Below, in pieces: positions 11,418-63,259 of a stretch of DNA of 64,000 nt. How positions within the stretch are numbered: the first letter of the stretch is position 1; the number at the start of each line of letters is the position of its first letter. The stretch lies in the NCBI GenBank assembly GCA_000092065.1, contig CP000583.1; one strand, given 5' to 3'. The DNA is from Ostreococcus lucimarinus (taxonomy: Eukaryota). The notes beneath the pieces are model-generated. The model saw only the letters and a list, made by a program, of their open reading frames with translations, was not told where the DNA came from and made no database searches. Made by a program: the position numbers and the translations under genes.

Positions 11418-13568
11418 TCAAAACCAAGGCTCGTCGAACGGCGTCGCCTTGACGACAATATTTGCCTCGGCGGGGACCGCCAATTTCCCTGGATGTCTAA
11501 GCATGACGAACACTTTCGTTTTGCCGCGACTAAAGTTTTCAGTGAGCATTTTCACTGCGTTGGCCTGAATCAAACCGGACGCTAGACCGACAGATGCCGC
11601 TGGTGCGGATACAGAAGTAATATGCCCGATGGTGTCGCCGAAGACGTCGCCGAGGTTCACGTCGCTTCGATGCTCCGAGCGAAGCGCTTTGTCCTTCTTC
11701 GACCATTGCGAGAACATACCCGACACCGTCCGATCACGACGGCGCGTCGTGTCGTCCGTCTTTTTGACACACCAAGCGTCGCGTTGTGCTTCGTTGGGGA
11801 AGAAGATCTCCGCACCGAGCGTCGGTTGACCAGACCACGGACATCGCAGGGCGACGCGAACCATCGCGTCGCGCGGATGCGAATCGCGTTCCAACTTCTC
11901 ATCGCGCACTCGAAGCACATTTCTCACCTTTACGAACGGCTCGGCGTGTCGCACGAGCGCTAAATCGCACTGAGAAACCTTGCTTTTTGGTTTCGCTCGA
12001 ATGTCGTCGAGAATATCGTCGAAAATCTCCAGACGCTTGTCCGCTCCAGCTTGGGTGTCGAGGTAATCGTCCGGGAATAGGGCGCGCGCAAAACGTTGCG
12101 CACACCACGACCATTCAGTGATTCCCACCGGACGTGCGCCGGTTTGGCACACGCCGTGCCAAACGGGAAGCATCCAAGACGAAGAAACGATCAGAGTGTA
12201 CCCTTCTATCGCTGTCACACCTCGATTGATGAGCGTCGCCGAGTATGATTTGACACCGACGGCGGCCGTTTCCTCCCATGGTCGCTCGAGCGCAGCCGCG
12301 CGCGATGCGCGTCGACTTTCGTCGTACTCGGCTTGCGTCGGCGCAACTTCCGTCGGCACCCGCATTTCACTCGAATCGGTTTGAACGCCCCAAGCAGCCG
12401 CACGAGCGTCTGGACAAACGATTCGACGGATGCCTCGGGTAGTATGCGCGCTCGAGTAAAAATCTAAATCCGGAGCCAGTTTCTGCACAATCTCGAAAGC
12501 TTTAGCACCGATGATTTCGATGCGCGCGAATGCGTCACTTTCTTCCACTTCTACGTCAGCTTTCGTGTTTGTCGCGACTCGCACCGCGACGGCGTCACGA
12601 AACGCTTCTGACGCCGACTCTTTCGCGCTCGGGTGCACCCAAACGTGCGCCTCGGCGACGCTCAACGTCTCCTCTCTCGGCGTACAGTACACCAGCGCCG
12701 GACAAATCACGCGACGTTTTGAATCCACAACGTGAATCGCAATCGCGCGTTCTCCGTCCTTGAACGCGCGCAAGTTTAGCGCTTTCTTTTCAGCCGCCGT
12801 CTTTGCTAAAACTTTGTGCACGTCGGTTCGGGCGCCCTTCACGACGAAACACGCGTTGTACGAGGAATCGTGGGCGAGCGCGGCTTGCGATATCGAACGC
12901 ATGATGAATCGCCAACCTCGACCTCGCCCCGGTCTCGCGGCGGGGACGACCCATCCCCACCCGCGAGGCTTTCGCATCGCGAACCTGCGAGCGCGCGCGC
13001 CGTCAGTCATCTCTCCAACATTTCGCCTCGTCTTCAAAAATCGAGCTTCCAAACGCCTCAGTCGATGTACCGTGCGGTAACTCTATACGCTCGTCTCCAG
13101 CGAACGCCGAAACGTTCTCGGATTGGCTGGGCGCGTGATTTCGTCATCACCGGCGTCTCTCGCGTTCGCGCGCGTCGCCTCGCGTCACCCTCCCCACCTC
13201 TTCGCGTGCCACGCGTGCGCGCGCAGCGCCTTCACCGCCGTCCCGCCTCCCGCGCGCGTCCTCGCCGCGTTCAGACGCCCTCGTCGCCGCGCGCGTCGTC
13301 GACATCCCTCCGTCGTCGCGTCCTCGCCCGCCGCCGCCGCGCGTCGCCGTTTCAAATTCGGCCTTCGCCGCGTCGCTCGCGGCGCGTGCGACGTCGCCCG
13401 TCTTCGCGCGTGTCTCGCCAGCGTCTCCACGCCCAGCGCGCGTCGTCCCTCGATCGCGCGCGTCGTCGCGCGCAGCTCGCGCGCGCGCGCCGCGACGAAA
13501 TCCCACACGCGCACGTAACGCGGCGTCGCGCTCGCGTCGCGCGCGTCGGCGACGACGACGACGTCCAT
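11418..13568 (-). CDS. POP1: RNase P/MRP protein subunit POP1. Two exons: join(13198..13568,11418..12984).
   Basis: Exon 1 reads ...LARHARRRATSHAPRATRRRPNL...ALRAHAWHAKR (human ...[21 protein letters not shown]...LETHIWHAKRFHM). Its donor is AG|GTGGGG at 13196-13197. Exon 2 follows a CTGAC...CGCAG| acceptor and reads (R)FAMRKPRGWGWVVPAARPG (human FHMVKKWGYCLGERP). A POPLD-like region is downstream. The splice restores the POP1 signature across two ORF-track frames. The track implies the start ATG is at 13566-13568, but my own base count puts it at 13565-13567. That is a ±1 uncertainty. Confidence 0.7.
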
Positions 13569-22942: not shown

Positions 22943-23877
22943 TTATTCGCTGGCTTGCGCGGCGGCCTGTGCTTCAGCCTTCTTCGCCATGCGCTCCGCC
23001 GTCTTGCGCTTTTCCCGCTCCAAGAACTCTTCTTGCAACTCCTTCGCAGAGGCAAGCTTGGAGAGCAAACCCTTGTACATGGCGAGATCCCCGTTCACCT
23101 TCTTGAAAGACAATCCGCCGGCTTGCGCGAGCGCTTCGAGCGCCTTCGGATCCGTCGCCTTGGCGAGTTCCAACATTCTGAAGATACCGATCGCGATGTA
23201 CTTGGTGTACATGAGCTTATTCTCCGCACTCTTCGCCGCCATCGTCGCGAAGATCGGGTTCGCGCTCAGGCCATCCACGCCGCCGGCCGACGCCGCGAAC
23301 GCGCCGAGCGCCTCCGCGTCCGCGCGCGTCTTCGCCGCGTCCTCCCCGAGGGCGCCCAAAAACGCGTTGAAAATTTTAACCTTCTCCGTCTCGCTCGGGA
23401 ATCCCTCGTAGAGCTGATCGAACACGCTCACGAATCCCAGCGACGCGAGTTCGCTGTATTCGCTCTTCGCGTTGTACTTCGCAAAGTGTCCCTGCACGAG
23501 CAGCTCCTGCGTGACGGTCGACCACACCGACGGGATCGGGTACGGGTACGCCTGCAAGAACTTCGCCTTCGTGTCGCTCACCGTCACGTCTGCGTCGCGT
23601 AAACCCGCGATCGCGTCGTCAGTCTCGCGTTCGCGTCGCGCGCGTCGTTCGTCGCGTCGCGCGTCGCGCGTCCCGCGTCCCGCGTCCCGCATCTCGCGAA
23701 CCCTCTATCCATCCATCTCGCGTCGTCGCGTCGTCGTCGCGTCGTCGTCGTCGCACCGTAGGCGCTCGCGCGGACGGCGACGGCGGAGGCGCGTCGCGCG
23801 ACGCGCGATCCGCGCTCGACGCGCGGGCGCGCCGCGCGCGGGGTCAGGACGGAGGCGGTCGAACGCGCGGCGGACAT
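22943..23877 (-). CDS. THF1: THYLAKOID FORMATION 1 / Psb29. join(23757..23877,22943..23589), chloroplast transit peptide in exon 1.
   Basis: The mature part VTVSDTKAKFLQAYPYPIPSVWSTVTQELLVQGHFAKYN...LGFVSVFDQLYEGFPSE matches plant THF1 (ETKLKFLKAYKRPIPSIYNTVLQELIVQQHLMRY...). Exon 1 MSAARSTASVLTPRAARPRVERGSRVARRASAVAVRASAY (S/A/R-rich) is joined through donor GTGCGA at 23755-23756, branch CTGAC, and acceptor CAG at 23590-23592. The 167-nt intron removes the frame clash between two track ORFs. Confidence 0.75.
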
Positions 23878-55615: not shown

Positions 55616-57649
55616 ATGCGCGTCGCGTCTGTCGCGTCGCGCGCCGTCGTCTCGCGCGCCTCGCCGCCGTCTCGCGCGTCCTCGCGCGCGCAATCGTCAC
55701 CGCCGTCGACGACCACGCCCGGCGGCGGCTCGCGGCGAATCGTCACCGCGCGCGCGAAGAAATCTTCGCGCGCGGGCGCGGGCGACGCCAAGTACGCGGT
55801 GAAAACGACGGAAGACGCGCTCAAGTACGACCCCACGAAGTCTCTCGCGGACGTCCTCGCGTCCAAGGACGACGCGGACGAAGCGAATGGGAATTCGAGC
55901 AACGACTGGGCGAGCTCGCTCGCGGCGTTTCGAGAAGAAAAGGCGACGAAGGATCGCACGCGAGCGGAGATGGGAGCGGAGATGGCGGACATGGAAAGGA
56001 AATCGAACGAAAGCGATGATTTGATGGACACGACGTGGGTGACGGAGGCTGGGACGGTCGCGAGACGAGAGTTTAGGGGATTGAACGCGGGAGAGGAGGA
56101 GGCGACGTTCGGAGACGACGAAGCCGAATTCGTGGCGTTTGGGACGAATGAGGACGACGGCGAGGAAGTTTGGGGACCCGGTGATGAAGGGTTTGAAGTG
56201 TACATGTACGATGACGATGATGACGAGGGGGAGGGTGAAGTCACTCAGGAACGGGGTCGGGGAATACCGCGGGAGATGCGGTGCTTTGACACGGCGAAAA
56301 TTTACGTAAAGGCTGGCGACGGCGGTGATGGTCAGGTTGCGTTCAGGCGAGAAAAGTTCGTGCCGCAAGGTGGACCATCGGGGGGTAACGGTGGGATCGG
56401 CGGCGCGGTGTATATTGTCGCCGATAAGAACATGAATTCTTTAGATGGATTTAGAAAAAAAGTGCACCATCGGGCCGAGGCGGGCAAACGGGGGCTCGGA
56501 TCGAAGTGTGCCGGCCGTAACGGTCGCGATTTGGAGATCTTGGTGCCACCCGGAACTATCATTCGCGACAGTCGGAGCAAAACAATCATCGCAGAGATCA
56601 CGAAGGCTGAACAGCGAGTGATGGTGCTCGCGGGCGGTCGAGGCGGTCGAGGGAACGCGTCCTTCAAGACGGCGAAGAATAAGGCTCCGATGATTGCGGA
56701 GTTGGGCGAAAAAGGACGTGAGTTCTGGGCTGAGATGGAACTCAAACTCGTCGCCGATGTGGGAATAATTGGCATACCCAACGCTGGGAAATCAACCTTA
56801 CTCGCGAGCGTGAGCGCGGCGAAACCAAAGATTGCCGACTACCCGTTTACGACCATCGTGCCAAATTTGGGCGTCGTAGAGCGCGACTACGAGCGCATGG
56901 TGTTTGCAGACATCCCGGGTTTGCTCGAAGGGGCGTCGGAAGGGATTGGTTTAGGTTTCGAGTTCCTTCGCCACACAAAGCGAACGCGCGTGCTCATTCA
57001 CGTCATCGACTGCGCGAGCGAGACGTGCTTTGAGGCGTACGACGCGATTCGCACCGAGCTCGAACTCTTCGACGAAGCCTTGCTCGAAAAGCCCGAAATC
57101 GTCGCTTTAAACAAAGTGGACGACATCGAAGCCACGGAGCGAGCGCTGCAAATGAAGGAAAAGTTTGACGCCGAGGGCATCTCTTCGCACTGCGTCTCCG
57201 CCGTCACGGGTGAGGGCGTGGAGGAGCTCCTCGCCGACGTCCAAGCCGCCCTTCGCGCCCTACCTCCGGTCGAAGATGCCTGGGCCGCTGATATCGCGGA
57301 AACGGGCGTGCGCGCCGCGGATGGAAAATCCATCGAAGATTTCACAATCGACGACACCCCGTACGCGTTCGTCGTCGCCGGCGAAGCCATCGAGCGTTTC
57401 ACGCAAATGACAAACTGGGACTATTTCGAGTCCTACAAGCGCTTCGGCCGCGTCCTCGAAATGGCTGGCATCGACGCCGCCCTCAACGCCGCGGGCGCGG
57501 GCGAGGGCGACCGTATCATCATCGGCGACTTCGAGTTCGAGTGGAGCAAGGACCGCCGCGACCGCACCCTGTACGAATCCTTCAGGCAACGCGTCGCCGA
57601 CGCCCCCGGCGGCCAGCGAGGCAGCCGCCACTGGCCCCACGCGTCGTGA
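55616..57649 (+). CDS. OBGC: Obg-family GTPase, chloroplast ObgC-like, with an N-terminal extension.
   Basis: The Obg fold is KIYVKAGDGGDGQVAFRREKFVPQGGPSGGNGGIGGAVYIV. The G domain is GIIGIPNAGKSTLLASVSAAKPKIADYPFTT...DIPGLLEGASEG. The C-terminal OCT/TGS-like domain is FTIDDTPYAFVVAGEAIERF. Confidence 0.85.
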   Translation: MRVASVASRAVVSRASPPSRASSRAQSSPPSTTTPGGGSRRIVTARAKKSSRAGAGDAKYAVKTTEDALKYDPTKSLADVLASKDDADEANGNSSNDWASSLAAFREEKATKDRTRAEMGAEMADMERKSNESDDLMDTTWVTEAGTVARREFRGLNAGEEEATFGDDEAEFVAFGTNEDDGEEVWGPGDEGFEVYMYDDDDDEGEGEVTQERGRGIPREMRCFDTAKIYVKAGDGGDGQVAFRREKFVPQGGPSGGNGGIGGAVYIVADKNMNSLDGFRKKVHHRAEAGKRGLGSKCAGRNGRDLEILVPPGTIIRDSRSKTIIAEITKAEQRVMVLAGGRGGRGNASFKTAKNKAPMIAELGEKGREFWAEMELKLVADVGIIGIPNAGKSTLLASVSAAKPKIADYPFTTIVPNLGVVERDYERMVFADIPGLLEGASEGIGLGFEFLRHTKRTRVLIHVIDCASETCFEAYDAIRTELELFDEALLEKPEIVALNKVDDIEATERALQMKEKFDAEGISSHCVSAVTGEGVEELLADVQAALRALPPVEDAWAADIAETGVRAADGKSIEDFTIDDTPYAFVVAGEAIERFTQMTNWDYFESYKRFGRVLEMAGIDAALNAAGAGEGDRIIIGDFEFEWSKDRRDRTLYESFRQRVADAPGGQRGSRHWPHAS

Positions 57650-57835
57650 AAACGTCAATCGCGCGCCCACCGTCGCCGTCGCGCGCCCGCGTCGTCGCCG
57701 CTGTAACCATCGAATCCAACGCGACGCCGCCTCCTCGCCGCGCCTCGCCACCGCCCCTCGGACGTCGACGCGCGCCCGAACGAAGCGCGCCTCTCCTCGC
57801 CCGCGCGGGACTCGAGCGCTCAACTGTACGCGCAA

Positions 57836-57862
57836 ACAGTGTAAACAGCACCACCGCGATCG
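57836..57862. promoter_or_regulatory. GTACGCGCAAACAGTGTAAACAGCACC. This is the reverse-complement orientation of the motif at 19041-19063.
   Basis: Twenty-one contiguous nucleotides match the reverse complement of 19043-19063. It lies between the Obg 3' end and the bZIP gene. Confidence 0.3.
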
Positions 57863-57888
57863 CGACATCGCGCGCGCCAATCGAAACG

Positions 57889-57926
57889 CGCGATCTCGCG
57901 ATCTCGCGATCTCGCGATCTCGCGCG
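57889..57926. repeat. (CGCGATCT)4-5 tandem octamer.
   Basis: cgcgatctcgcgatctcgcgatctcgcgatctcgcg is seen directly. A second partial copy is at 57940-57960. Confidence 0.7.
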
Positions 57927-58110
57927 CCAATCAAAACGCGCGATCTCGATCGTCGCGCGATGCGAGCCACTCGTCGTCGCGTCGTCGGCGCGTCGCGCCG
58001 CGACGTCGATCGGCACTCGCGCGCGCGCCGCGCGCGCCGCGCGCGCGCGCCCGGGAAGAAAACGAACGACGCGCGGTCGCGCGCGTCGGGACGTCGGGAC
58101 GTCGCGGTCG

Positions 58111-58199
58111 GGCGCGACGGTCGGGATAACGCGCGCGACGGTTGGGATAACGCCGCGACGGTTGGGATAACGCCGCGACGGTTGGGATAACGCGCGCGA

Positions 58200-58243
<44 letters not shown>

Positions 58244-58252
58244 GGACGGCGA
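58111..58252. repeat. Two adjacent microsatellite/minisatellite arrays: a 19–20-bp unit GCGACGGTTGGGATAACGC ×4 (58111-58199), then (GACGGC)8 (58200-58252).
   Basis: Seen directly. They lie in the 5' region of the bZIP gene. Confidence 0.75.
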
Positions 58253-58312
58253 GGTGGGTGAGATCGAGGACGGGGATTCGCGCGACGCGCGCGCGATCGG
58301 GCGGGCGCGGCG

Positions 58313-58906
58313 ATGGCGGGACGGCGAGCGAGCGGTGGGGGGGGGGCGACGGCGAGCGACGGCGCGACGGGACGACGCGGGCGCGGGGCGAAGAAGAGCG
58401 AGAGCGGCGCGCGCGAGCGCGCGGAGAGAGAGAGGGCGCGGGAGGTCGAGACGGAGGAGGAGAACGCGCGATGGGACGTGCAAACGTATTTGGGTGGGTC
58501 GTCGCCGGCGCTCGCGCCGGCGACGTTATCGGGGTTACCGCCGTTTCCCATCGCGACTCAGATGCTGCAAAACATGACCCAAACGAACCCGTTTTGGGCA
58601 GCGCAAGCGATGCTCCATCGCGGGATCGCGATGGGGCAGAGCGCGGCGCTCCCGCAGGCGGGGGCGACGACGAACGGGGCGAGCGCGGCGACGGATGAGT
58701 TGACGCGGAAGAAATTGGCACGCAAGCAATCGAATCGCGATAGCGCGCGTAGAAGCCGGTTGCGCAAGCAGGCTGAAACGGTCGAGATAAACGTTAAAGT
58801 GAGCGAGCTCGAGCGAGAAGTCGTCGCGCTTCGTGAAGAAAATCAGCGTTTGAAAAAGCGCCTCGCCGAGAACGAAGGGCAACGTGAACGAAAAACGACA
58901 AAATGA
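58313..58906 (+). CDS. bZIP transcription factor. The start is uncertain.
   Basis: The C-terminal basic region ELTRKKLARKQSNRDSARRSRLRKQAE is followed by a leucine zipper (VSELEREVVALREENQRLKKRLAE). The N-terminus is G/R-rich and may include the 5' UTR. Confidence 0.6.
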   Translation: MAGRRASGGGGATASDGATGRRGRGAKKSESGARERAERERAREVETEEENARWDVQTYLGGSSPALAPATLSGLPPFPIATQMLQNMTQTNPFWAAQAMLHRGIAMGQSAALPQAGATTNGASAATDELTRKKLARKQSNRDSARRSRLRKQAETVEINVKVSELEREVVALREENQRLKKRLAENEGQRERKTTK

Positions 58907-59158
58907 CAACCGCCGCAAAACTTGCGCGCGTACGCTTCGAAACGAGATCCTGTGAAGGACCGGTGTATTCACGTAGTTCTAATCTCTTTTCATCCAAGCT
59001 TCCCCCACTCGATTCTTTGAATACATATATTATCATTATTCTTTCACGTCTGCAACCCCGCGGGGAGAAACGTTTGCGCCGCGCTGCGAGTGTTTCGTGG
59101 CTACCGTTCATCGCCGTCCCTGACCTCTCACTCTTACAATTAACTATTGGCCTAAAGC

Positions 59159-60842
59159 CTACTGACCCTCCTGTTCGGGTTCGAGTTGAATCAAGTCGTC
59201 GATGCGGAGAATCGTAATCGCAGCTTCAGTGGCAAACTGGATGCTCTTCACCTTGCTCAACGCCGGCTCGAGGACACCGCTGGCGATGTTGTCGCGAAGT
59301 TCGCCCTTGACGAGATCCAAGCCCATCCCGGCGAGCTCTTCGTTACCTTGACTCTGTGCTTGATGATGAATAGCTCGAAGCTTGGCCACGAGATCGGTGG
59401 AATCCTTCGCAGCGTTGACAGAGAGTACCTTTGGGATGACCAAGAGCGCGTTGGCAAACTCGGCGATGGCGAGCTGCTCCCGGCTACCCAGAGTAGTCGC
59501 CATATTCTCCAGATAAATGCTCAACGCAGCTTCGACGGCGCCACCACCAGCGACAACCTTGCCACTTTCCAACGTCCTCTTCACGATGCACAGTGCGTCG
59601 TGCACCGAGCGGTCGATCTCGTCGAGCATATAATCGTTTGCGCCTCGCAAGAGAATTGTACACGATTGGGTGCTCGCGCAGTCCTTGATGACGACCATAT
59701 CATCATCAGCCACGCGTTGCTCCACCACTTCGCCCGCAGTGCCAAGCATGGACTCGTCGAAAGTTTCTCCACCATCCATGTCGGACAGAGACAGCATCAC
59801 TTGCGCCCCCGTCGCCTTGGCGATGCGGCGCAAATCATCACGATTGACGCGACGACAGGCGATAGCCCCAGCCTCGACGAAGTACTTGAGCGCCATATCA
59901 TCGATGCCCTTAGAACAGAGCACGACATTGGCACCGGCGGCTAAGATCATCTTGATGCGATTGGCGGTGATTTCAAACTCTTGCTCGCGAATCTTTTCGA
60001 GTTCCTTCGGGTCGTTCACCAGCACTTGAATCCCCATCAACATCTTTGTCTTCTGCAAGTTGAAGTCGATGCACGCAATCTTTGCATTCTTGACTAACTT
60101 TGGCATCCCTTCCGCCGCACGACCGAGGTTAAGGGCGTATCCGTGCAACACCGATGACTCCTTCAAGCTCTTCCCGTGCGCCTTCAAAATGTTGATCGCC
60201 TTGATGGGATACCTGACGTCGCCCATGTCGTTGTACGTCTTGATGCTCGTGCACGCATCGACGACCAAATCCGCAAAGAAATCTTCTTCGGCACCGATGA
60301 TTTTCGAGCTCATGCTCGTCTTTGCGCACTGCAACAAGGCTTCCTTCCCGAGCGTCTCCACGTCTCTCGCCAACTTACCTTCGACGTACTTGACGCTTTC
60401 TCGCATCGCCAACCTGAACCCAGCGATGATGTTCGTCGGGTGAATCTTATTCCTCACCAACTCATTCGCCCGCTTCAAAAGCTCCGCGGCGAGAATCACC
60501 ACCGAAGTCGTTCCATCTCCCACTTCCTGATCCTGCAACTCGGCGAGCTCGACCAAGATCTTCGCCGCCGGGTGTTCAATCTCTAAAAGTTTCAAAATCG
60601 TCGCCCCATCGTTCGTGATCGTCACGTCACCGATATCATCCACGAGCATCTACGCGTCAAACCCTTTCATTCCGTCAGTCCTCGTCCCTCACCGCGCGCG
60701 CGCATCGTTTCGTCGATTCTCCGCGTCTCGTCCTCAAAGTCAACGCCTTCGCGTCTTCGTCACGCGCCTTGTCCAGTCCCACCGGCCCGAGCGACGTCTT
60801 CACGATGTTCGCCACCGCCATGACCGCCGTCGCTGTTCGCAT
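59159..60842 (-). CDS. CCT1: T-complex protein 1 subunit alpha (CCT1/TCP-1α). join(60768..60842,59159..60649), with a probable GC-AG intron.
   Basis: Exon 2 is near-identical in pattern to TCP-1α ([51 protein letters not shown]...). Exon 1 [25 protein letters not shown] matches the TCP-1α N-terminus (..[23 protein letters not shown]|MLVDD). The only frame-preserving junction uses donor AAG|GCGCGT at 60766-60767 and acceptor CGTAG| at 60650-60652, preceded by CTGAC. Confidence 0.8.
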
Positions 60843-60868
60843 CCCGCGTCGCGCGCGCGTCGTCGTCA

Positions 60869-60898
60869 GTCTCCGTCTCCGTCTCCGTCTCCGTCTCC
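60869..60898. repeat. (GTCTCC)5 hexanucleotide repeat in the CCT1 5' leader. (TCGATCG)3 is at 60921-60945.
   Basis: Seen directly. Confidence 0.7.
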
Positions 60899-61192
60899 CC
60901 GCTCGAAGTCGCGCGTCCCGTCGATCGTCGATCGTCGATCGTCGTCCTCGTCCCATCGCGTTCGAGATCGCGTCCCTCGTTCGCTCGCGCTTCGTCGCTC
61001 GTCGTCGTCCGCGCGCCGCACCGTTCGTCTGTCGCACGTCCTGTCCGCTCTCGCGCTCGCCGAAGAAGACGTCGGATTGTCGTCGCATGGCGCGCGGCGT
61101 CGCGCGTCGGCGAGTGGCGCGTCGGACGCGTTGACCGCGCGGCGCACTTCGCGTCGCGTCGCGTCGCGAGGCGACACAAGGCGTCGAGCGCG

Positions 61193-63259
61193 ATGGCGCG
61201 CGTCGCGGCGTTCGCGATCGGCGTCGTCGCGGGCGCGAGCGCGTGCGTCGCGGGCGCCGCGCGCGCGGGATCGGCGCGCGGTGGCGGCGGCGACGGCGAC
61301 GCGCGCGCGGGCGGCGCGCGCGCGCGCGCGGCGGAGGCGAGCGCGCGGAGGCGCGCGGAGGACGAAGGCAAGACGCGCGCGGACGACGCGGACGACGGGG
61401 AGGACGGGGAGGACGGGGAGGACGAGACGCGGGTGGTGGTGTACGCCACGCGAACGGGGACGGCGAGGCGGTACGCGGCGACGATTCGACGACGGTTGAA
61501 CGATGAAGACGCGGCCGCGACGGGAGGAAAGCGAGGATACGCGCTCTTGGACGCGGCGAGCTTGGTGGATCCGGAAAAAGTGCTGGCGGGGGGGAAGAGG
61601 GTCGTCGCGATATTCGTGGTGAGCACGCACGACGGCGGCGAGGCGCCGGAATCGAGCGCGTGGTTCGCCCGTTGGGCGCGAGAGGCGGCGTACGATGAAC
61701 GCACGGGATGGATGTACTTGAAAAACGTGCGTTATGCGGTGTTCGGGTGCGGGAATAGGGAGTATGGGGATAACTTCAACCGAGCGGGGCGAGAGTTGGA
61801 CGCGCAGTTGGCGCGCATGGGGGGCGAACGCTTGGCGCGACGGTGCGACGGGGATGAAGCGAGCGGACGGATGGAGAAGCAGTTCGAGGAGTGGGGGGAA
61901 AAAGTTATCCGTCGGTTGTCAAATTCTACCGCATCGAGCGGGGACGATGCAGCGCACTCGCGCGTCGGTGTGGCGGAAGAACGGGACCAGTCTGAATACG
62001 CGAGCGAGGGCGAAGACGACGAGGGGGGGGCGAGCGCGGCAGGGAGCGAGGATGGTCAAGATATGGAGGACATCGCCGAAGGTGAGGGTGGAGAAAAGAA
62101 AGAAATGGTGACTGATGCTTTGCGTGGGGCGCTCACGAAGCAAGGTTACAAGATTCTTGGATCTCACTCGGGCGTGAAACTTTGTCGATGGACCAAGGCG
62201 ATGCTTCGCGGCAGAGGAGGTTGCTACAAACACACTTTCTACGGCATCGAAAGTCATCGATGCATGGAAACGACGCCGTCGCTTGCGTGTGCGAATAAGT
62301 GTACATTTTGTTGGCGGCATCACACGAATCCTGTCGGGAAAACGTGGCGTTGGCAGATGGACGATCCCTTGGAACTTGTCGAAGCCGCGGTTTCCGAGCA
62401 TTGCAAGATGGTGAAGCAAATGAAGGGGGTGCCAGGCGTTTTGCCCGAGAAGCTCGAAGAGGGTATGAATCCCAAACATTGTGCATTGTCTCTAGTCGGT
62501 GAACCAATCATGTACCCTGAGATTGGAAAGTTTGTAAGCGAGTTGCACTCGCGAAAAATCAGCACGTTTTTGGTGACGAATGCACAATTCCCTGAGGCAA
62601 TCACAAACTTGCCTCCAATAACGCAACTATACGTCTCTGTCGACGCCGCAACGCCAGAGACCTTGAAAGCAATCGATAGACCGCTATTTGCAGACTACTG
62701 GGATCGTTTCATTGGTTCTTTGACATCCTTAAAGGATAAACAACAGCGAACTGTCTACCGCTTGACACTCGTCTCGGGATGGAACATGGAAGAAGTTGCG
62801 GCGTACGCCAAGTTGATAGACCTCGGCCAACCCGATTTTATCGAGATCAAAGGCGTGACATACTGTGGAAGTAGTGATGCATCGTCACTCACGATGAAAA
62901 ACGTCCCTTATCACAAGGATGTGTGTGAATTTGGCGAGGCTATTGTCAATCTTCGTCGACGCGAAAACGGCGAGGAAGAATACGGCTTGGCGTGCGAGCA
63001 CGCGCATTCTTGCTGCATCTTGCTTGCTCGAACAGACAGGTACAAAATAGATGACGAGTGGTACACATGGATTGATTATGACAAATTTCAAACCCTCGTA
63101 GCGAGTGGAGAAAAGTTCAAAGCGCTCGACTATATCGAGCGGACGCCGAGCTGGGCGACGTATGGCGCGGAAGAAGCAGGATTTGACCCAGAGCAAACGC
63201 GCCATCGTAAAGTTCGTAATCACCCAGGGAAGTTAACGAGCGACGAACCGCCAGAATAG
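61193..63259 (+). CDS. TYW1: tRNA wybutosine-synthesizing protein 1 (TYW1), with a flavodoxin domain and a radical-SAM domain, 688 aa.
   Basis: The flavodoxin-like part is [19 protein letters not shown]...[16 protein letters not shown]. The radical SAM cysteine motif is in [17 protein letters not shown]. The Wyosine_form domain is [15 protein letters not shown]...YVSVDAAT. The N-terminus is hydrophobic (ER anchor). Confidence 0.85.

Follow-up and report, generated by a model that had tools for sequence, protein, structure and literature searches.

Within a 64,000-nt stretch of Ostreococcus lucimarinus CCE9901 DNA (contig CP000583.1, assembly GCA_000092065.1; hereafter the window), a minus-strand gene for the chaperonin subunit CCT1 (TCP-1 alpha) is interrupted inside an otherwise invariant protein segment, and the interrupting sequence begins with GC. 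We asked whether this sequence is a genuine spliceosomal intron with a GC donor, or whether a base error, a different splice junction, the deposited gene model or a minor-class intron accounts for it better.

A 118-nt gap splits an invariant segment of CCT1

The original prediction, made from the letters alone, held that the TCP-1α sequence SLGPVGLDK|MLVDDIGDV is split by 118 nt and that AAG|GCGCGT...CGTAG|ATG is the only junction that preserves it. Both points were confirmed: the gap occupies 60767..60650 on the minus strand, and when all donor and acceptor pairs were tried, only 60768^60649 gave ...LGPVGLDK|MLVDDIGD.... The prediction had, however, placed the deviating base wrongly at 60767; the C of the GC donor is position 60766 (G on the plus strand). 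The resulting gene structure, all of it on the minus strand, is as follows.

61022..61088, minus strand: CCT1 exon 1, with the ATG at 61088 and 22 codons plus 1 nt
60833..61021, minus strand: CCT1 intron 1, 189 nt, phase 1, GTGCGG...GACTGACG, then 30 nt, AACAG; missing from spliced contig L001
60768..60832, minus strand: CCT1 exon 2, 65 nt, ending CTG GAC AAG at 60768
60650..60767, minus strand: CCT1 intron 2, 118 nt, phase 0, GC-AG; missing from L001
60761..60767, minus strand: 5' splice site of intron 2, GCGCGTG, preceded by exonic AAG, with the C of +2 at 60766
60686..60692, minus strand: cryptic GT donor GTGAGGG inside intron 2, which defines an in-frame 43-nt alternative and is unused in the assembled transcript
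60673..60680, minus strand: branch-point motif of intron 2, GACTGACG, with the presumed branch A at 60675
60664..60665, minus strand: proximal AG of intron 2, 8 nt past the ACTGAC motif, bypassed for the AG at 60651-60650
60650..60654, minus strand: 3' splice site of intron 2, CGTAG (consensus CGCAG), 22 nt from ACTGAC to AG
59159..60649, minus strand: CCT1 exon 3, 496 codons plus stop, starting ATG CTC GTG GAT at 60649 (MLVDDIGDV...)

Intron 2 reads GCGCGTGACGAAG...GGTGAGGGACGAGGACTGACGGAATGAAAGGGTTTGACGCGTAG, beginning GCGCGTG and ending GCGTAG. Intron 1 carries short tandem repeats (GACGATC three times and GGAGAC five times) and is stop-free in frame, so that exon 1, intron 1, exon 2 and part of intron 2 form a single 137-aa ORF (60675..61088), which ends at a TGA within the branch-point motif of intron 2.

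The spliced product is a full-length protein of 540 aa. It scored 867.1 bits over residues 9-538 against the CCT alpha equivalog TIGR02340 (cutoff 800.2), which places it in that family, and it matches the 'predicted protein [Ostreococcus lucimarinus CCE9901]' (P0002, i.e., ABO95261.1, XP_001416968.1 or A4RUJ1) at 100% identity. The next protein matches were CCT alpha of Micromonas, Bathycoccus, other green algae and plants, at 72-79% identity.

Two transcript-type contigs lack the intron

The evidence from transcripts consists of two intron-less transcript-type contigs, which are assemblies and not reads. The first, L001, is a 1952-nt Logan contig from run SRR17229574 (for which a literature search gave no paper). 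It is 99.9% identical to the window and encodes the best database match to the product, a protein of 540 aa (P0001) that reads ...GLDKMLVDD.... BLAST aligned L001 to the window in three blocks: 277-362 to 61107..61022 (100%), 357-427 to 60839..60768, and 426-1952 to 60651..59125, with 1 mismatch in 1527 nt (99.9%). The last of these extends the CCT1 3' UTR at least to 59125. Both introns are cleanly gone from L001, and the junction at intron 2, GACAAG|ATGCTC, joins 60768 to 60649, as the original prediction had expected of spliced RNA. The two sides of this junction overlap by only 2 nt (AG), so a k-mer mis-join is impossible and the junction must exist in the reads. The first 276 nt of L001 are not in the window and code for the C-terminal end (77 residues) of a Gly/Arg-rich product unrelated to CCT1; this 5' part is probably an assembly chimera, joined within GC-rich, low-complexity sequence shortly before the CCT1 5' UTR, and it leaves the splice junction untouched.

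The second contig, L099 (JGI sample 3300018681, 1730 nt), encodes the protein P0003 and has the junction GACAAG|ATG. It is 100% identical over 1559 nt to the genomic contig L025 and also matches exons 1 and 2 of L025, whose genomic intron at this position is 93 nt long and reads GCGCGTT...GACTGACG...CGCAG. GC-AG splicing at this site was therefore seen twice, in two Ostreococcus lineages with 93%-identical proteins. Because exon 2 and intron 2 both end in AG, shifting the boundaries by 1 or 2 nt (to GG-TA or AG-GT) would leave the mRNA unchanged, and cDNA does not separate these pairs from GC-AG; to our knowledge, neither pair serves as spliceosomal termini.

Apart from +2, intron 2 follows the Ostreococcus splicing code

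In EST-confirmed O. lucimarinus introns outside chromosome 2, the donor consensus is GTGCGTG, which is atypical and strong (4.8 bits); ACTGAC occurs in 87% of these introns and GACTGACG in 66.5% (Irimia & Roy 2008, PMC2483917). The same introns prefer CGCAG as acceptor, with about 20-35 nt from branch point to AG, and non-canonical positions had been removed from this set by eye (PMC2483917). The donor of intron 2, AAG|GCGCGTG, matches this consensus at 6/7 positions, with +2 as the sole difference, in keeping with the prediction that it lies one substitution away from the locally preferred GTGCGT. Its branch point is a perfect GACTGACG (60680-60673) 22 nt from the AG, within the published range, and the bypassing of the proximal AG at 8 nt in favor of the AG at 22 nt agrees with the same preference. 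The 64-kb window has just 12 copies of GACTGACG, both strands counted, and the copy in intron 2 precedes the functional AG by 22 nt, so the arrangement is not due to chance.

Among the introns that could be resolved at GACTGACG sites in the window, no second GC-AG intron was found, the donors being GTGCGT, GTGCGG and GTGCGA. One of these sites (23590-23755, minus strand) lies in a THF1/Psb29-like gene with an intron after the transit-peptide exon; its donor GTGCGAC (tacg|gtgcgac, at about 23755) has a canonical GT and is off consensus at +6, and its GACTGACG branch point is followed by a CGCAG acceptor 26 nt downstream. Another site (12985-13060, minus strand) has a perfect GACTGACG (13007) and a CGCAG 15 nt later, shortly before an ORF of 544 aa (11418..13052). 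The 330 nt upstream of it contain no GTGCG-type donor, and the site may mark an intron in the 5' UTR with an atypical donor or belong to a longer intron.

The intron is conserved in position and varies at +2

All Ostreococcus-type loci that were recovered have a phase-0 intron separating the K and M codons, and the exonic AAG before its donor is kept in 7/7 Ostreococcus sequence lineages. The donor is GC in five of these lineages and GT in the other two, so the check on the orthologous intron that the original prediction had suggested came out in its favor.

Window, L002 and L019-21: intron of 118 nt, donor GCGCGTG
L022-23: intron of 121 nt, donor GCGCGTG
L024, L025 and L029: intron of 93 nt, donor GCGCGTT
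L027, L032-33 and L106-111: intron of 89 nt, donor GCGCGTT
L034 and L100-105: intron of 93 nt, donor GCGCGTG
L003-10 and others: intron of 130 nt, donor GTGCGTT
L011-18 and L035-37: intron of 96-102 nt, donor GTGCGTT

An alignment across GT and GC lineages (A1) revealed conserved exon flanks and intron bodies that are not conserved. All five GC lineages have a perfect GACTGACG at 19-28 nt from a CG(C/T)AG acceptor. Loci with 76-77% protein identity (probably Micromonas or Bathycoccus) have a GT donor at the same position (GTA... or GTGCGT), and an intron at the same phase-0 K/M position occurs in farther green-algal loci, down to 64-66% protein identity. Every Ostreococcus lineage has intron 1, invariably with a GT donor (GTGCGG, GTGCGT, GTGCGA, GTGCGC or GTACGG); the loci with 76-77% identity lack it.

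In a neighbor-joining tree of 849 nt of exon 3 with 300 bootstraps (a single gene analyzed by a distance method), the GC lineage L034 grouped with the GT lineage L011/L035 in 100% of replicates with all codon positions and in 90% with positions 1+2. The GC lineages never came out together as one clade, and neither did the Ostreococcus GT lineages (0% of replicates for each). GT in the outgroups together with this tree provisionally implies at least two T/C changes at +2. Over the same 849 nt, at least three GC clades are only about 82-86% identical. The GC state is old and probably recurrent within Ostreococcus, as judged from these comparisons. The fuller reading is a serious possibility that we hold only tentatively: inside the genus, +2 would have changed between T and C two or more times, with GC persisting in at least three clades despite their deep divergence. 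If it is true, the strong constraint on GTGCGTG does not reach +2, even though the splice signals of this genome rank with the most constrained on record.

A freshwater-type contig with 64% identity (L083, about 1080-1215; Ga0164296_1001661) also has a GC donor at this position, AAG|GCACGTG...CACTGACC...ACCAG, in an intron of 112 nt. It may represent a parallel GC-AG case in a distant green alga.

Alternative readings of the junction

The public annotation places the junction differently. XP_001416968.1 / A4RUJ1 (P0002) is 542 aa long and reads ...GLDK-AR-MLVDD..., and if this deposited GenBank/JGI model were right, the A and R would belong to the protein. Such a junction (KARM) can be derived only by removing 112 nt with GA-AG (60761..60650) or TG-TA termini, and a search for a canonical origin found none. 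The sequence is GLDKMLVDD in both transcript-type contigs and in the intron-less contigs from every related lineage. We consider the deposited model exceedingly improbable: XP_001416968.1 is mis-annotated by two residues, presumably since the modelling software disallowed a GC donor, an outcome that fits the prediction that gene finders miss GC-AG introns. A canonical GT-AG intron can also be drawn within the gap, as had been predicted: the donor GTGAGGG at 60692 defines a 43-nt intron (60692..60650) that is in frame and without a stop, and CCT1 would then carry a lineage-specific insertion of exactly 25 residues after GLDK. Introns of 40-65 nt are known on O. lucimarinus chromosome 2 (PMC2367439), which lends this reading some plausibility, but the spliced contig L001 lacks the 75 nt that it would retain, its donor stands only 13 nt upstream of the branch-point motif, and the insertion would interrupt a stretch that does not vary in any homologue with retrieved sequence. 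Nor is the alternative conserved: read-through of the corresponding sequence in other GC lineages meets TGA at codon 3 in L024 and L027 (GCG CGT TGA) and a stop at codon 10 in L034, so a GT-based coding extension is impossible in those lineages. Taken with its canonical termini, this leaves the 43-nt intron very unlikely. The other in-frame junctions at the gap, GC-AG introns of 52, 97 and 103 nt, all add residues, as the 43-nt GT-AG intron does, and none of them is in the transcript contig.

The 118-nt interval might also owe its GC to the reference itself or to another class of intron. A single T to C change, introduced in base calling or assembly, would suffice to turn a true GTGCGTG donor into the one observed. 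Six independent metagenome contigs from the same or a 99%-identical lineage nevertheless carry GCGCGTG.

L002: ENA ERZ23490498
L019: VMHT01033235.1
L020: Ga0181560
L021: Ga0213862
L022: Ga0222715
L023: Ga0222716

These contigs differ from the window elsewhere, in a G/A SNP in intron 2, in the 121-nt variant of intron 2, and in the spacer between exon 1 and exon 2, which spans intron 1 and measures 192, 195, 197 or 201 nt. GC is also found in three more distant lineages, and each of the five diverged GC lineages is represented by 2-9 contigs from different samples. Independent assemblies thus refute a sequencing or assembly error, the check for which the original prediction had called, and the probability of such an error is negligible. 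Since minor-class introns sometimes have non-GT termini, a U12-type intron would be another way to accommodate the GC. U12-type introns have the donor (A/G)TATCCTT and a TCCTTAAC-like branch site. GCGCGTG is unlike that donor, and the branch point of intron 2 is the local U2-type GACTGACG. Moreover, Mamiellophyceae lack the components of the U12 spliceosome (PMC3879977), so intron 2 must be U2-type, and the minor-spliceosome reading has next to no probability.

Genomic surroundings of CCT1

A TYW1-like gene (61193..63259, plus strand) is divergent from CCT1, with the two start codons about 100 bp apart, and the TYW1-like gene at syntenic loci has Flavodoxin/Radical_SAM/Wyosine_form domains. 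The order Obg-like GTPase, bZIP, CCT1, TYW1-like (55616-63259) is kept in most of the recovered Ostreococcus metagenome contigs; the L106-L111 lineage departs from it, with no called bZIP gene and with the Obg-like gene immediately after CCT1. Two plus-strand ORFs over intron 2 (60615..61499 and 60769..61134) are Arg/Ser-rich and look like by-products of GC-rich sequence. Rfam at the gathering threshold gave zero matches across the 64-kb window, i.e., no RNA gene inside the CCT1 introns and no snRNA gene.

Intron 2 of CCT1 is a U2-type GC-AG intron

The removal of the intron at its exact boundaries, the reality of the C and the presence of homologous GT-AG and GC-AG introns in relatives were each established directly. 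We are highly confident that 60767..60650 is a genuine U2-type GC-AG spliceosomal intron in O. lucimarinus CCT1. The pre-mRNA is cut after GAC AAG and before ATG CTC. General knowledge of U2-type splicing suggests that U1 and U6 would recognize AAG|GCGCGUG with one mismatch, at +2, and that U2 would pair with GACUGACG, leaving the A at 60675 within GACTGACG as the branch nucleotide. The second step would use the AG at 60651-60650, 22 nt past the motif, and bypass the nearer one. GC-AG introns of other eukaryotes are usually described in such terms, with intact flanking signals keeping recognition by U1, U6 and U2 adequate. Here the intact exonic G at -1, GCGT at +3 to +6 (GCGTG in the window) and the perfect branch point may offset the mismatch at +2. 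Retention of intron 2 would bring translation to a stop at the TGA within the branch-point motif. A less likely explanation for the persistence of the weakened donor is that it permits regulated intron retention, which would tune chaperonin expression through this in-frame TGA.

The titles and abstracts listed by a literature search gave nothing specific to CCT1 on GC-AG introns in Ostreococcus and no census of such introns in the genus. Our analysis corrects the reference protein of an essential chaperonin subunit, into which two residues that do not belong there, A and R, had been placed within a segment that is invariant elsewhere. It also shows that failure to allow for a GC-AG intron left the O. 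lucimarinus annotation with at least one impossible junction (GA-AG). The Ostreococcus spliceosome tolerates C at +2 despite unusually rigid 5' splice-site and branch-point signals, and among natural lineages of the genus GC is a stable and probably recurrent state. The understanding of splicing is unchanged by this case: GC-AG introns are a textbook minority class, to which CCT1 adds a well-supported example along with an annotation fix.

Compared with known systems, the gene is an ordinary, full-length orthologue that shows no difference from CCT1 / TCP-1 alpha (TIGR02340). With the O. lucimarinus introns outside chromosome 2 (PMC2483917), intron 2 shares GACTGACG, the 22-nt spacing, the CGTAG acceptor, a length near 100 nt and a location close to the 5' end of a housekeeping gene with high expression; it differs from them at +2, where it has C instead of T. 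GC-AG introns average about 1.2% of plant introns (PMC6310983). Like other U2-type GC-AG introns, that of CCT1 has GC at +1/+2 and AG at its 3' end, matches the U2-type donor and branch-point consensus of its species in the rest, is homologous to GT-AG introns of relatives, and was mis-set by the original gene model. Nothing fundamental sets it apart from that class; what is unusual is its context, an intron-poor genome with an atypical and tightly constrained donor consensus, GTGCGTG (PMC2483917).
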